A stretch of DNA of 64,000 bases from an uncultured Candidatus Binatia bacterium. Lineage in GTDB: Bacteria; Desulfobacterota; Binatia; HRBIN30; CADEER01. Location: NCBI GenBank assembly GCA_965216585.1, contig CBDCGC010000003.1:2337219-2401218 (forward strand). Reading direction: 5' to 3'. How positions within the stretch are numbered: position 1 is the first letter of the stretch; the number at the start of each line of letters is the position of its first letter. Under the pieces are notes generated by a model. That model did no database searches, was not told where the DNA came from, and saw only the letters and a list, made by a program, of their open reading frames with translations. Shown here piece by piece: positions 24,204 to 30,165 of this stretch. The translations under genes were made by a program, and so were the position numbers.

Positions 24204-24236
24204 CCGGCGCCGCGCCGGGGGCTCGGCTAGCCGAGC
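24204..24236. terminator. two adjacent GC-rich hairpins (ccggcgc-c-gcgccgg; gctcggc-ta-gccgagc) between convergent pyrF and nuoN
   Basis: Perfect 7-bp stems seen directly. No canonical U-tract on either strand, so intrinsic-terminator function is uncertain. Confidence 0.3.
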
Positions 24237-25672
24237 GATTGGTAGGCGCTGAGGGCCAGCTCGTAGGCCCAGTTGGGGAAGATGCCCAGCGCAACCGTGC
24301 ACAGGGCGGCGATCGCCAGGGTTGCCGCGAGGTAGGGTCGGTTGGCCGTACCCTGAACGTCCTTCGCTTCGTCGGCCATGAACATACGCATCAGCACACC
24401 GCCGTAGTAGTACATCGAAACGACACTGTTGACGGCGCCGAGGATCGCAAGCCAGAAGTAGCCGCTCTGCACTGCGGCGCTGAAGAGATAGAACTTCCCG
24501 GCAAATCCGGCGAGCGCCGGTATGCCGGCCAACGAGAGCAGGAAGATGGTCATGCAGACGCCGAGCATCGGGTGGCGCAGGCCGACACCGTCGTAGTCTT
24601 CCAGTCGTTCGTTGGGTTCGCCGCGCCGCCCCAGGGCAACGACGACGGCAAAGGCGCCGGTGTTCATCAGAACGTAGGCCAACAGGTAGTAGAGCACCGC
24701 GGCGCCACCCGCTTCGCTGGCGGCCACCATCCCCACCATCAAGTAGCCAGCGTGAGCGATGCTCGAATAGGCGAGCATTCGCTTGATGTTCGTCTGCCGC
24801 AACGCCGCGAGATTTCCGATCGTCATGGTGACGACGGAAAGCGCCGCCAGGACGGGGCTCCAGTCGACCGCCAGCACGGCGAAGGTGTGCATGAAGATGC
24901 GCACGAAAGCGGCAAAGGCCGCGGCCTTGACCGCGGCGGCCATGAACGCCGTCACCGACGTCGGCGCGCCTTCGTAGACATCCGGCGCCCAGGCGTGAAA
25001 CGGCACGGCAGCGATCTTGAACGCGAAACCCACCAGCACCAGGGCCATGCCGGCAAAAGCGAGCGCGCGCTGCGCATCCGCAATTTGCGCTACCTCGCGC
25101 GCCACCGGTACCAGCGCTGTCGTGCCGAAGGCGCCGTAGAGCAGGGCGATGCCGAAGAGCAGGAAGCCGGTCGCGAAGGCGCCGAGCAGAAAATACTTCA
25201 TCGCCGCTTCACTCGAGCGCAGATCCGGCCGCCAGATTCCGGCCAGCGCATACGCCGCGATCGACATCGTTTCCAGCCCGAGAAAAAAGACGATGAGGTC
25301 GTTGGCCGCGGCCATGACGAACATCCCTGCCGTCGCCAGAAGAGTCAGCGCGTAGTACTCGCCACTGTGCAACTGGATCGTGCCCAAATAGTCCATCGAC
25401 ACGAGCAGAGTCAGTGCCGCGGCCAGACAGAAGACGACGTTGAAGAAGATGACATAGCGGTCGAGAATGACGGTCCCGGAAAATCCGATCTCGTGGGTGT
25501 TCCACAACGCCACCGACGCAATCGAAGCAACGACGAGACCGATGATGCCGATCCACCCGAGGCCGTCTTTCTCTTGATCGGTAACGGCCAGGTCGGCCAA
25601 CAGCACGGCGAAGCCGGTACCGGTGACGATCAGGGTCGGAATCAACACTGTCCAGGAAATTTCGGGAATCAT
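24227..25672 (-). CDS. nuoN: NADH-quinone oxidoreductase subunit N
   Basis: 481-aa polytopic protein; FFLGLETMSIAAYALAG...AAMKYFLLGAFATGFLLFGIALLYGAFGTT matches NuoN (ND2) rather than L or M. Confidence 0.8.
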   Translation of the reverse strand: MIPEISWTVLIPTLIVTGTGFAVLLADLAVTDQEKDGLGWIGIIGLVVASIASVALWNTHEIGFSGTVILDRYVIFFNVVFCLAAALTLLVSMDYLGTIQLHSGEYYALTLLATAGMFVMAAANDLIVFFLGLETMSIAAYALAGIWRPDLRSSEAAMKYFLLGAFATGFLLFGIALLYGAFGTTALVPVAREVAQIADAQRALAFAGMALVLVGFAFKIAAVPFHAWAPDVYEGAPTSVTAFMAAAVKAAAFAAFVRIFMHTFAVLAVDWSPVLAALSVVTMTIGNLAALRQTNIKRMLAYSSIAHAGYLMVGMVAASEAGGAAVLYYLLAYVLMNTGAFAVVVALGRRGEPNERLEDYDGVGLRHPMLGVCMTIFLLSLAGIPALAGFAGKFYLFSAAVQSGYFWLAILGAVNSVVSMYYYGGVLMRMFMADEAKDVQGTANRPYLAATLAIAALCTVALGIFPNWAYELALSAYQSLG

Positions 25673-25691
25673 CGCACGGCTCGTTGCGCAG

Positions 25692-25994
25692 CTACCAGCG
25701 CAACATCCTCACTTCGTCGGCGTTCAGAGTCTCGCGGTGGCGAAACAAGGCGATGATGATCGCCAAGCCAACGGCGACTTCGGCGGCCGCGACGGTCATG
25801 ACGAAGAACACGATGACCTGCCCGTCGAGACTCGCGTGCTGGCGCGAGAACGTGACGAAGGCGAGGTTGGCTGCGTTGAGCATCAACTCGATCGACATGA
25901 ACATCACGATCAGGTTGCGCCGAATCAAAAATCCGACGGCGCCGATGACGAAGAGAACGATGCTCAACAAGATGTAGTAGGTCGCCGGAACCAT
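25692..25994 (-). CDS. nuoK: NADH-quinone oxidoreductase subunit K
   Basis: 100 aa; [26 protein letters not shown]...[17 protein letters not shown], compare E. coli NuoK. Confidence 0.9.
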
Positions 25995-25997
25995 GGC

Positions 25998-28101: not shown

Positions 28102-28112
28102 CTTCAACCCGC

Positions 28113-29306
28113 TCAGCGGTCGCACTCGCCACCGATCATGTTGATCATGCCAAAGGTTGGAATGATGTCGGCAACCATGTGACCGCGGATCATTGCGGCA
28201 AAGGCCGACATGCCGAGAAAGCACGGTGGCCGCACCCGACAGCGATAGGGCCGGCCACTACCGTCACTGACGACGTAGAACCCGACCTCGCCATTCGCAC
28301 CCTCGACCGCCTGGTAGACCTCACCGGCCGGCACCTTGGCGCCCTCCATGATCAGTTTGAAGTGGTTCATCAGACCTTCGATCGTGTTGTAGACTTCGTG
28401 CTTCTCCGGTAGCACGTAGCGCGCATCGTCGATGCGCACCGGGCCGTCGGGAAGGTTCTGCATCGCCTGGTCGATGATCTTCAGGCTCTCGCCGATCTCG
28501 TTGAAACGCACGAGAAAGCGGTCGTAGTTGTCGCCCTGTTCGCCGAGCGGGACGTCGAAGTCGAAGTTCTCATAGCCGCAGTAGGGAGACGCCTTGCGCA
28601 CGTCGTAGTCGACGCCGCTGGCCCGCAGCAGCGGTCCGGTGAGACCGTAGGAGATCGCATCGTCTTGCGAGAGAACACCGATCCCCGACATGCGGTCGTA
28701 GAAGATGCGATTGCGCGTGAGCAACTTGTCGCAGTCGTCGAGGATCGCGTGCAGGTGCTTGAAGGCATCACCGATGCGCTGCTCGAAGTCGGGCGGCAAA
28801 TCGTTGGTGACACCGCCAATACGCGTATAGGAAACCGTAACGCGCGCGCCGGTCACCGCTTCGACGATGTCCCACAACAACTCGCGAGCTTCGTTGAGCA
28901 GAAAACCGACCGTCATCGCGCCCATCTCTCCGGCCGCCATACCGAGGCAAGTGAGGTGGTCGGTAACGCGCGACACCTCACTCATGATGACGCGAATGAA
29001 GCGACAACGCGGCGGCACCTCGACACCACACAAACGTTCGACCGCAATCGCGAAACCAACGTTGTTGATCAGCGGCGAAACGTAGTTGAGGCGATCGGTG
29101 TAGGGAATCGCCTGCGTCCACGTTCCCTGCTCGATCATCTTCTCGAATCCCCGGTGCAGGTAGCCGACCTCGGTGTCGCAACCGACCACCTCTTCGCCGT
29201 CGAGCTCGAGGTTGAACTTGATCGTACCGTGCGTCGCCGGATGGGAAGGACCCATCTGGATGCGCATGATCTCTTCGGTCGGGTCGCGGTGTGCCGGCTC
29301 GGCCAT
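28113..29306 (-). CDS. nuoD: NADH-quinone oxidoreductase subunit D (49-kDa)
   Basis: Start at MAEPAHRD (ATG 29306, single-base overlap with the nuoC stop); MGPSHPATHGTIKFNLELDGEEVV signature. Confidence 0.9.
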   Translation of the reverse strand: MAEPAHRDPTEEIMRIQMGPSHPATHGTIKFNLELDGEEVVGCDTEVGYLHRGFEKMIEQGTWTQAIPYTDRLNYVSPLINNVGFAIAVERLCGVEVPPRCRFIRVIMSEVSRVTDHLTCLGMAAGEMGAMTVGFLLNEARELLWDIVEAVTGARVTVSYTRIGGVTNDLPPDFEQRIGDAFKHLHAILDDCDKLLTRNRIFYDRMSGIGVLSQDDAISYGLTGPLLRASGVDYDVRKASPYCGYENFDFDVPLGEQGDNYDRFLVRFNEIGESLKIIDQAMQNLPDGPVRIDDARYVLPEKHEVYNTIEGLMNHFKLIMEGAKVPAGEVYQAVEGANGEVGFYVVSDGSGRPYRCRVRPPCFLGMSAFAAMIRGHMVADIIPTFGMINMIGGECDR

Positions 29307-29812
29307 CAGAACTTCCAATCCTGCACGATCGGGTCGCGTTCTTCGGTCAGCGGTTGCCGCTTGTCGACCGGATAGTCTTTGCGCAGCGGGTGACCCTCGA
29401 ACTCCTCGTACATGAGGATGCGCCGCAGGTCGGGGTGGCCGTCGAAGTGGATGCCCAGCATGTCCCACGCTTCGCGCTCCAGCCAATTCGCCGACTTCCA
29501 GATTTCACACAAGGAGTGGACGCGCGCGTCATTCTCAGGAACCCGGATCTTGACGCGCAGGAAGTGATTCCGCGCCAGTGATCGCAGATGGTAGACCACC
29601 TCGAAGCGCGGCTCGCGGCCGAGGTAGTCGACTGCCGTCACATCGGTCAGACAAGAGAAGTCGAGATCCGGGTCGGCGCTCAACTTGCGAAAGAACCCCA
29701 ACGCCCCCTCGCGCTCGATGACGACCGCTGCCTCGGCGAAAGCCTCGCTCGCTTCGACGAGCAGCGCGCCGGCCAGTGGCCGCACCGCTTCGATCAGATC
29801 GGCCGGGCTCAT
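29306..29812 (-). CDS. nuoC: NADH-quinone oxidoreductase subunit C (30-kDa)
   Basis: Start MSPADLIEAV (ATG 29812, ATGA overlap with the nuoA stop); WKSANWLEREAWDMLGIHFDGHPDLRRIL signature. Confidence 0.8.
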   Translation of the reverse strand: MSPADLIEAVRPLAGALLVEASEAFAEAAVVIEREGALGFFRKLSADPDLDFSCLTDVTAVDYLGREPRFEVVYHLRSLARNHFLRVKIRVPENDARVHSLCEIWKSANWLEREAWDMLGIHFDGHPDLRRILMYEEFEGHPLRKDYPVDKRQPLTEERDPIVQDWKF

Positions 29813-30165
29813 TCCCACTCCAGTGCGCCTTTGCGCCATTCGTAGAGCAATCCGAGACTGAGCACGGCGATGAAGATGCCCATCGAGCCCATGCCGAACC
29901 AGCCCAAGCGGCGGAAGACGAGTGCCCAGGGGTACATGAAGACCACTTCGACGTCGAAGACGATGAAGAGGATCGCGGTGAGGTAGAACTTGACCGAGAA
30001 ACGACCCCAGGCAGAGCCGCTCGACTCGTTGCCACACTCGAAGGCATCGAGCTTCGATTCAGTCTGGTTGCGCGGGCCCAGCAGACGACCGGCGTTGACC
30101 ATCAGCGTTACCACCGCTCCGGCGATCAGCAACATGATCACCACCGGAAGGTATTCGTTTGCCAT
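29809..30165 (-). CDS. nuoA: NADH-quinone oxidoreductase subunit A
   Basis: 118 aa; FYLTAILFIVFDVEVVFMYPWA NuoA (ND3) signature. Confidence 0.85.
   Translation of the reverse strand: MANEYLPVVIMLLIAGAVVTLMVNAGRLLGPRNQTESKLDAFECGNESSGSAWGRFSVKFYLTAILFIVFDVEVVFMYPWALVFRRLGWFGMGSMGIFIAVLSLGLLYEWRKGALEWE

Follow-up and report, generated by a model that had tools for sequence, protein, structure and literature searches.

What kind of respiratory complex I can be encoded by an operon that holds only eight genes of the canonical 14-gene nuoA-N set? The question is raised by a 64-kb window, the whole stretch of DNA analysed here, which lies on a 4.77-Mb contig (4,773,090 bp) of a Candidatus Binatia metagenome-assembled genome (MAG). 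The minus strand carries, at 24227-30165, eight packed genes that were identified with curated HMMs (NCBIfam and Pfam) as nuoA, C, D, E, H, J, K and N (Table 1). NuoC, D, E, K and N exceed the curated cutoffs, and 8/8 genes match their family models. By these models all eight are orthologues of core subunits of respiratory complex I (Nuo/NDH-1), in agreement with the subunit assignments of an earlier note on this DNA.

Table 1. Operon genes, nuoK-nuoN spacer and flanking genes, with window coordinates
Feature	Coordinates	Strand	Size	Evidence and remarks
nuoA	29809..30165	-	118 aa	PF00507, E = 1.4e-38; first gene of the operon
nuoC	29306..29812	-	168 aa	TIGR01961 148 bits (cutoff 122); PF00329; start codon checked
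nuoD	28113..29306	-	397 aa	NF004739 493 bits (cutoff 360); TIGR01962 491 bits, above cutoff
nuoE	27622..28101	-	159 aa	TIGR01958 173 bits (cutoff 142); PF01257
nuoH	26512..27606	-	364 aa	PF00146, E = 2.6e-101
nuoJ	25998..26507	-	169 aa	PF00499, E = 1.1e-37
nuoK	25692..25994	-	100 aa	NF004320 130 bits (cutoff 57)
nuoK-nuoN spacer	25673..25691	-	19 nt	scar of the nuoL-nuoM deletion, from synteny
nuoN	24227..25672	-	481 aa	TIGR01770 (NuoN) 444 bits vs NuoM model 181 bits
Upstream flank: APH-type kinase, NTP-transferase, patatin-like lipase	30345..33657	+		Pfam
Downstream flank: proS, pyrF	21586..24080	+		Pfam; convergent with nuoN

Recomputation of the gene boundaries yielded corrected start codons for nuoC (ATG at 29812) and nuoE (ATG at 28101). 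nuoA and nuoC overlap by 4 nt (ATGA) and nuoC and nuoD by 1 nt, and the remaining spacers measure 11 (D/E), 15 (E/H), 4 (H/J), 3 (J/K) and 19 nt (K/N). The claim of the earlier note that there is no space for the six other genes holds. There is no room for nuoB between nuoA and nuoC because the nuoC ATG overlaps the nuoA stop codon; nuoE is followed by nuoH with neither nuoF nor nuoG between them, and nuoH by nuoJ without nuoI. The catalytic residues are all kept, as read from the translations and, for NuoN, from an alignment to solved NuoN and NdhB chains, its best solved homologues. NuoD has the quinone-site motifs GPSHPATHG and DRLNY with the His and the Tyr, NuoE the four cysteine cluster ligands (CTNLSC and CLASC), NuoK both conserved glutamates (SIELML and AAAEVA), and NuoN the Glu of TM5 (GLETMS) and the Lys of TM7 (FKIAAVPFH), TM8 (AVKAAAF) and TM12 (FAGKFYLF).

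Three other identities were considered and rejected. The 481-aa protein might have been a NuoM, but its call as NuoN survives the profile-HMM check (Table 1), and it is the sole antiporter-like subunit encoded in the operon. An energy-converting [NiFe] hydrogenase (Mbh/Ech) does not fit the NuoD scores (about 490 bits with NuoD models vs about 23 bits with hydrogenase large-subunit models), the NuoD sequence, in which no NiFe CxxC motif is found, or the presence of NuoE, A, J and K. Finally, a cyanobacterial or plastid NDH-1 is excluded by the presence of NuoE and by the Nuo models, which outscore the Ndh (NAD(P)H-quinone oxidoreductase) models for A, D and N.

A motif scan across the 64-kb window revealed no nuoB, F, G, I, L or M, and HMMs of NuoB and NuoI gave no match in it. 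When Binatia L, M, F and G were used as tblastn queries against the window, the sole match was nuoN, a paralogue, and Pfam analysis of most of the other called genes, up to the last few near the right window end, found no domain of the six. Concealment of NuoB or NuoI as fusions in neighbouring genes was also rejected: none of the eight Nuo proteins contains an extra domain by NCBIfam or Pfam, which upholds the absence recorded earlier. Of the peripheral subunits, every [4Fe-4S]-bearing one is absent (B, I, F and G). In the membrane arm, the kept set (A, H, J, K and N) matches the proximal module exactly (ND3, ND1, ND6, ND4L and ND2), and the absent pair, L and M, makes up the distal pump module (ND5 and ND4). 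The earlier note had read the mixture of both arms as no simple module split. Its subunit calls are correct, but the partition is not arbitrary, since the membrane set coincides with one module and L/M with the other.

As the source is a MAG, a chimeric join at nuoK/nuoN or nuoE/nuoH produced during assembly or binning had to be weighed. However, the same eight genes occur in the same order in MAGs from ten unrelated studies, representing at least ten species-level genomes, and one of these is a long-read assembly with a 2.6-Mb contig. The eight-gene loci L001, L003-L008, L010 and L011 are complete, and L002 and L009 are interrupted by a contig end. Reading frames are clean and synteny extends over both flanks. 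The three upstream flank genes, of which the APH-kinase gene is the divergent neighbour of nuoA (Pfam), also lie beside nuoA in L003 and in the nuoL-nuoM-bearing relatives L166-L169 and L172; proS/pyrF also follow nuoN in L003, L007 and L010 and in the nuoL-nuoM-bearing L166, L167 and L168. With independent MAGs agreeing on the order, such an artefact has a negligible probability. Within the clade, NuoD, H, K and N are 78-91% identical, and the genes are under purifying selection with their order kept across species. The cluster is a real, conserved complex I operon of an uncultured Binatia bacterium.

The six absent genes do not share one history. No Binatia nuo operon examined, the 12-gene form included, contains nuoB or nuoI, and most related environmental nuo operons lack them as well; their absence is ordinary and not special to this clade. 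nuoF-G are lacking in many of the compared operons. nuoL-M, by comparison, are absent only in the eight-gene clade among the operons compared. B, I, F and G are presumably supplied from other loci of the genome; we infer this because their partners NuoC, D and E are conserved. In this respect the operon resembles split nuo clusters (“split” and “NUO14minus” in the naming of Degli Esposti), in which the loci are cut across the N, Q and P modules and NuoB stands alone (PMC3578206, PMC4758237, PMC12361115). In those clusters, however, all 14 subunits have been located and L-M stay with the membrane-arm cluster, whereas the present cluster has lost L-M, and an inherited NuoL is not among the 120 matches listed (see below). 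Compared with the canonical operon (E. coli, Thermus thermophilus, Paracoccus), the eight orthologues score above or near curated cutoffs, A-C-D-E-H-J-K-N is the canonical order with gaps, and catalytic residues are kept; the difference lies in the six core genes outside the operon (B/I class-wide, F-G in many lineages, L-M here only).

The cluster might also be a paralogous partial set. It would then draw its B, I, F, G, L and M from another, complete complex I operon of a different type in the same genome, or else act as an accessory isoform. Genomes often contain several nuo operons; in Nitrospina gracilis, for example, NUO-1 is accompanied by a scattered NUO-2 that comprises nuoACHIJKLMN, nuoEGD and, each on its own, nuoB2 and nuoF2 (PMC3578206). 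However, B/I are missing in every Binatia lineage examined, so that a second full operon would be needed class-wide. The best 80 NuoD relatives listed (from species-representative genomes) are all of this one type, no second set is present in any fetched locus of the clade, and a survey of the Binatota reports complex I with duplicates unmentioned (PMC8262859). We therefore regard a partial paralogous set as unlikely.

The closest relatives of the eight-gene lineages (L166, L167, L168, L169 and L172) carry nuoACDEHJK-L-M-N within the same flanking genes, with about 3.5 kb of nuoL-nuoM at the point where nuoK meets nuoN in our operon. Identity to L166-L168 is 79-82% for NuoD, 78-81% for NuoH and 66-70% for NuoN. 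In neighbor-joining trees the eight-gene lineages and the nearest lineages with L-M form one clade (bootstrap 99.5-100% with five or six genes; 72% with D and H alone), which is nested among 10-gene (ACDEHJKLMN) and 12-gene (ACDEFGHJKLMN) operons. The K-N spacers of the other eight-gene loci are 8-52 nt long and unrelated in sequence, and no gene remnants were found in them. Because the closest relatives have L-M between K and N within the same flanks, nuoL-M must have been deleted in place from a ten-gene operon. Stepwise reduction, in which F-G left before the excision of L-M, is the best explanation of the present gene content.

Deletion from the operon would still be compatible with a normal long arm, if the same core operon were complemented by NuoL/NuoM made in trans elsewhere in the genome, either from a fast-evolving moved copy or from a foreign pair or a divergent paralogue, whose presence would have rendered the genes in the operon redundant ahead of their deletion. 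Cyanobacteria offer a precedent, as they encode exchangeable NdhD/NdhF modules apart from the NDH-1M core. The membrane subunits of that core, NdhA, B, C, E and G, correspond to NuoH, N, A, K and J, exactly the set retained here, with the NuoM/NuoL homologues encoded apart from it; cyanobacteria, however, lack NuoE, F and G and possess NdhL-S, whereas the Binatia operon has NuoE and Nuo-type proteins. In addition, many environmental nuo loci contain extra L-M-N sets or rearranged L-M (L100, L115, L117, L126, L136 and L138).

A relocated NuoL was sought in a protein collection in which NuoA, D, H, J, K and N of the window are present (from one 4,773,090-bp contig, on which an identical NuoK sequence was found), together with the NuoK of nine related eight-gene genomes. 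One search used NuoL and the other a profile of the 16 closest NuoL sequences; for these the best 120 matches were listed, down to 63% identity. In neither search did the 120 matches listed include a NuoL from the contigs of 4,773,090, 2,636,637, 1,066,592, 623,648, 358,231, 188,197 or 84,532 bp, the assignment of proteins to genomes being indirect. All NuoL matches whose context was read (11/11) lie directly after nuoK. An inherited copy should have about 65-70% identity, within the listed range, while divergent copies would fall below it. It is thus highly probable that, in this core operon of a multi-locus complex I, L-M were deleted rather than moved. The earlier suggestion that the missing subunits are presumably at a second locus stands insofar as partners encoded elsewhere are needed; it fails where L-M are taken as inherited genes, since these were deleted in place and no descendant NuoL was found among these matches. 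As to NuoL/NuoM supplied in trans more generally, the window, the listed NuoL matches and the 10-kb flanks around eleven related loci show no such genes, NdhD/NdhF-like ones apart from the core included, and hybrid enzymes that mix subunits of different complex I clades are reportedly rare (PMC4453560).

The remaining subunits were compared for retention at sites invariant in reference Binatia, eight-gene lineages being set against their sister lineages with L-M. NuoN retention is 0.881 vs 0.931 (p = 6e-4) and that of NuoJ 0.69 vs 0.75 (p = 0.027), whereas no difference was found for D, H, E, K and A; subunits other than NuoJ retain 0.88-0.96 of these sites. The excess changes in NuoN are enriched in its C-terminal third (odds ratio 2.5, p = 0.04), and 1/188 conserved NuoN sites is altered clade-wide. 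Conservation thus seems to have loosened in NuoN and NuoJ and not in D, H, E, K and A. The 88% of reference-invariant positions kept by NuoN, like the single altered site, also fits a pump with its neighbour still there and counts against a shortened arm.

The same data bear on two alternatives. Slightly lower conservation of NuoN and NuoJ could mark a decaying, non-functional remnant heading to loss, for which losing two core genes could be the first step. However, 8/8 reading frames are intact with catalytic residues kept, gene order and the tight or overlapping junctions persist across lineages at 65-80% protein identity, and D, H, E and K show the same degree of conservation as their counterparts in lineages with L-M; decay is therefore very improbable. 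As for L/M provided in trans, the NuoN and NuoJ changes fit an altered partner as well as a lost one, and nearly all conserved NuoN sites are kept. We consider this explanation a serious one, though it falls short of even odds.

The reading that we prefer, with a probability of roughly 40%, is that the eight genes are the core operon of a multi-locus complex I from which L-M were deleted and whose enzyme works in a short-arm form with one pump. The operon would be the main one for this NADH:quinone oxidoreductase, the genes of which would be spread over several loci, and a clean excision, in one or more ancestors of the clade, removed nuoL-M and left nuoK next to nuoN. The quinone-reducing module would be assembled from NuoC and NuoD and, encoded at other loci, NuoB and NuoI; NuoE would pair with NuoF and NuoG made elsewhere, and NuoA, H, J, K and N would make up the proximal membrane domain. 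Without NuoL and NuoM, the enzyme would rely on one antiporter-like pump (NuoN) and the H/A/J/K channel, and may move about half as many protons per NADH as is usual. By extension, and tentatively, the whole Binatia clade could run such a naturally shortened complex I, with L-M deleted once or twice and about half the canonical proton yield.

To our knowledge, a natural complex I in which L and M are both missing has yet to be described. Chadwick et al. reportedly described in 2018 “2M” complexes with an extra NuoM, read as a tuning of the proton/electron ratio; they too vary naturally in the number of antiporter-like pumps, but there a pump is gained and not two lost, and a short arm, if true, would be their natural mirror image. 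The feasibility of a short arm is indicated by the Yarrowia lipolytica nb8m-deletion subcomplex without ND4 and ND5, which is stable and catalytically active with about half the proton-pumping capacity (Droese et al. 2011, PMC3160329). This laboratory counterpart is an engineered mitochondrial assembly defect, whereas the Binatia gene content is naturally evolved and conserved.

As our survey shows, environmental bacteria commonly have nuo operons that lack nuoB and nuoI, and operon-based annotation that rates such genomes as “complex I incomplete” will therefore misjudge them. The proton count of complex I and the coupling of its distal antiporter-like subunits to quinone reduction over about 200 angstroms are debated, and enzymes without the distal module have so far been engineered or assembly-defective only. 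If divergent L/M genes are found instead, they would represent module replacement in complex I outside cyanobacteria. A natural enzyme without L/M that is conserved throughout a clade, if true, would be a test object for the proton/electron ratio, for the role of the NuoL lateral helix and for the relation of pump number to quinone potential. In the Binatia themselves, the short arm may then be adaptive, given how small the driving force of electron transfer from NADH to menaquinone is.

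Eight ORFs on the minus strand, between positions 24227 and 30165, are joined by overlaps or by spacers of at most 19 nt and were identified with curated models (see table). This confirms the eight-gene nuo operon that an earlier note had read from the sequence alone, including its subunit identities. The possibility that the 481-aa protein is a mislabelled NuoM could be dismissed, because it scored 444 bits with the NuoN model vs. 181 bits with the NuoM model. Likewise, NuoB and NuoI are not concealed as fusions, since none of the eight proteins has additional length or domains. 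The quinone-site His and Tyr of NuoD, two Cys pairs of NuoE, both Glu of NuoK and the Glu-TM5 and Lys-TM7/8/12 set of NuoN are retained. The eight complex I genes are shown to be intact and constrained, and they form one transcription-compatible block. A scan for promoters and terminators returned nothing that exceeds shuffled expectation.

Coordinates of the nuo genes and of other genes in the window that are mentioned in the text
Feature	Position	Strand	Length (aa)	Assignment
nuoA	29809-30165	minus	118	curated model
nuoC	29306-29812	minus	168	curated model
nuoD	28113-29306	minus	397	curated model
nuoE	27622-28101	minus	159	curated model
nuoH	26512-27606	minus	364	curated model
nuoJ	25998-26507	minus	169	curated model
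nuoK	25692-25994	minus	100	curated model
nuoN	24227-25672	minus	481	curated model
cytochrome P450	1898-3136			
cytochrome P450	3136-4359			
luciferase-like monooxygenase	4304-5356			
LuxE-like acyl-protein synthetase	6829-8283			
called gene	19481-20140			no Pfam match
called gene	40081-41391			no Pfam match
molybdopterin oxidoreductase	46522-48918		798	Fe4S4 domain
cytochrome P450	50119-51309			
called gene	51508-52227			no Pfam match
fusion protein	52857-55871		1004	FAD-linked oxidase and 4Fe-4S dicluster domain
called gene	55895-56227			no Pfam match
called gene	56276-56575			no Pfam match

None of nuoB, nuoF, nuoG, nuoI, nuoL and nuoM was found elsewhere in the 64 kb by motif scans, tblastn with Binatia NuoL, NuoM, NuoF and NuoG, home-built NuoB and NuoI HMMs, or Pfam analysis of most other called genes. 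The molybdopterin oxidoreductase was considered as a NuoG and rejected, as it is without Fer2 or NADH-G domains. The three P450 genes and the luciferase-like and LuxE-like genes are consistent with the oxidation of alkanes and fatty compounds reported for Binatota.

A NuoD scan of species-representative genomes yielded at least 80 related loci (designated by L-numbers), mostly labelled Candidatus Binatia or Binataceae and the others by older or generic names (e.g. Deltaproteobacteria). MAGs from ten separate studies share the order A-C-D-E-H-J-K-N, and in one case the assembly was made from long reads and includes a 2.6-Mb contig. At L003, which was checked on both sides, the flanks are identical in gene content to those of the window: an APH-type kinase, an NTP-transferase and a patatin-like lipase lie upstream and divergent, pyrF and proS downstream and convergent. 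Due to the repeated gene order and the common flanks, an assembly artefact, which the earlier note had allowed for, is excluded; that either decay or artefact explains the operon is very improbable.

Besides the window, the eight-gene form comprises L001, L003-L008, L010 and L011, as well as L002 and L009, which are broken off by the contig end. Other Binatia loci hold A-C-D-E-H-J-K-L-M-N (e.g. L013, L017, L055, L061, L062, L066, L078 and L081) or A-C-D-E-F-G-H-J-K-L-M-N (e.g. L049, L050, L060, L064, L065, L069, L072 and L074). Many Binatia (Binataceae-type loci, L014-L080) keep only nuoA-C-D together, e.g. L014, L026 and L042, and a membrane-arm-only operon, nuoA-H-J-K-L-M-N, was seen on other Binatia contigs (L082, L083, L084 and L165). 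If these two operons occurred in one genome, it would have two nuoA copies; identity to the NuoA of the window is 47-62% for the A-C-D copy and 59-69% for the membrane-arm copy (L082-L084). In L010 (CAVWTK010000009.1, the 2.6-Mb long-read contig), apparent frameshifts, which are probably long-read sequencing errors, fuse or split nuo ORFs, for example into a 646-aa A-C-D read-through and a 537-aa H-J fusion; its gene order is still that of the eight-gene form.

The six absences go back to three separate histories. NuoB and NuoI HMMs, for which the metagenome scan with a NuoL alignment supplied sequences from operons that contain these genes, had no match in 84 Binatia loci. In metagenome loci picked solely by a related NuoL, with matches spanning many phyla, nuoB was not between nuoA and nuoC in 17 of 24 loci (present in 7) and nuoI not between nuoH and nuoK in 33 of 45 (present in 12), both counted among the matches listed. 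Operons without nuoB and nuoI are thus common far beyond Binatia on metagenome contigs (L085-L164), in forms including A-C-D-E-F-G-H-J-K-L-M-N, A-C-D-H-J-K-L-M-N and A-E-F-G-H-K-L-M-N. Split and partial clusters are also in the literature: nuoB2 and nuoF2 of Nitrospina NUO-2 stand alone (PMC3578206), "split" and "NUO14minus" operon classes have been defined (PMC4758237), and split and single-cluster forms are mixed within most complex I clades (PMC12361115). For these reasons, an operon without B, I, F and G is no surprise on its own; this layout is widespread, though seldom described. The Binatota paper and its supplements contain no information on complex I at subunit level (PMC8262859). The best 120 NuoF matches to the L065 query had 83% identity or more and all appear to derive from one in-operon clade; three of them correspond to in-operon loci.

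The four subunits B, I, F and G are exactly those that bear [4Fe-4S] clusters. NuoC and NuoD require NuoB (cluster N2) and NuoI (N6a and N6b) for quinone reduction, and NuoE requires NuoF and NuoG, so that NuoB, I, F and G would be expressed from other loci of the genome. The membrane subunits kept, NuoA, H, J, K and N, correspond to mitochondrial ND3, ND1, ND6, ND4L and ND2; they make up the proximal membrane module and match the cyanobacterial NDH-1M membrane core. L and M form the distal module. The earlier note saw no simple module split, a remark that has to be revised on these grounds; its interpretation of the operon holds in part. An operon lacking B, I, F and G is a widespread layout, and it is the loss of nuoL-nuoM that is unusual.

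This absence of nuoL and nuoM is specific to the eight-gene clade. The closest relatives with both genes (L166, L167, L168, L169 and L172) all carry K-L-M-N; the upstream flank of the window is present in all five, and its pyrF-proS downstream flank in L166-L168. The latter three are nearer to the window (NuoD 79-82%, NuoN 66-70% identity) than the second eight-gene group, represented by L007 (77% and 63%). The eight-gene lineages and their nearest relatives with nuoL-nuoM form one clade with 99.5-100% bootstrap for five or six concatenated subunits and 72% for NuoD and NuoH alone, and this clade is nested among 10- and 12-gene operons. Gene order in the closest relatives and nesting in the tree thus indicate that the eight-gene form is derived, with about 3.5 kb removed between nuoK and nuoN. 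The residual spacers there measure 8-52 nt in the eight-gene loci, are unrelated in sequence and contain no gene remnants. As the two eight-gene groups are sisters with 92% bootstrap when NuoN is included and with 67% and 33% without it, nuoL-nuoM may have been deleted either once or twice. The clade-wide loss in place is the unusual part of this operon.

A moved copy was sought with the NuoL of L013, for which the best 120 matches (at least 63% identity) were listed, and with a profile of 16 NuoL from the nearest clade, which listed the same set plus five. The searched collection holds exact matches to the NuoK of nine eight-gene genomes and to NuoA, D, H, J, K and N of the window, the latter six all on one contig of 4,773,090 bp, essentially a complete chromosome. 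Among the matches listed, no NuoL came from this contig or from contigs of other eight-gene genomes (2,636,637, 1,066,592, 623,648, 358,231, 188,197 and 84,532 bp). A relocated inherited NuoL should share about 65-70% identity with the nearest clade, which is within the listed range; we conclude from these searches that the ancestral NuoL, and the adjacent NuoM with it, was probably deleted and not moved. No orphan L-M locus was found with the L013 NuoL; L follows K in every context inspected, directly in 11 of the 11 neighbourhoods read. That a second complete nuo operon lends its subunits, as the earlier note had considered, is unlikely. Among the matches listed by the metagenome scan with the NuoL alignment, which used broad peptide patterns, there was no second Binatia locus.

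At L138:1105-7071 (WNGG01019761.1), nuoA-C-D-E is immediately preceded by nuoL-nuoM, and the contig stops inside nuoE; in a related lineage, the distal-module genes can thus relocate together. In L100, L115, L117, L126 and L136, the nuo operon is followed within a few kb by another nuoL-M-N set in inverted orientation. L100 also encodes a NuoC with a Pro/Ala-rich N-terminal extension, a short NuoD (355 aa) and a long NuoH (465 aa).

Subunits were compared at sites without variation among eight reference Binatia that have L-M (Wilcoxon, eight-gene vs. sister lineages with L-M). Retention was lower in the eight-gene lineages for NuoN (0.881 vs. 0.931, p = 6e-4) and NuoJ (0.688 vs. 0.752, p = 0.027), and did not differ significantly for NuoD (0.963 vs. 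0.961), NuoH (0.945 vs. 0.951), NuoE (0.952 vs. 0.966), NuoK and NuoA. The excess change of NuoN over NuoD, H and E (p = 0.001) is enriched in the C-terminal third (13 of 24 sites, odds ratio 2.5, p = 0.04), in the half that presumably faces NuoM, as it does in solved structures. The changes are mostly conservative and lineage-specific, and of 188 strongly conserved sites in NuoN, only 1 has changed clade-wide, which speaks against dramatic change. This pattern fits a lost neighbour and a changed one equally well.

Accounts in which the distal module is lacking or replaced carry nearly equal weight. Divergent L and M genes elsewhere may replace the lost module, with a parallel in the exchangeable NdhD/NdhF modules of cyanobacteria. 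Our tentative preference, with a probability of about 0.4, is that the enzyme would simply be without NuoL/NuoM. In Yarrowia, a subcomplex that lacks ND4 and ND5 retains activity, with half the pumping capacity (PMC3160329), and complex I clades are reported to mix subunits only rarely (PMC4453560). Menaquinone synthesis is reported for Binatota (supplement of PMC8262859), and the small potential gap between menaquinone and NADH could favour fewer pumped protons. If the enzyme is without the distal module, it would be the first natural short-arm complex I; if divergent L/M genes replace the lost pair, it would be a case of distal-module replacement.
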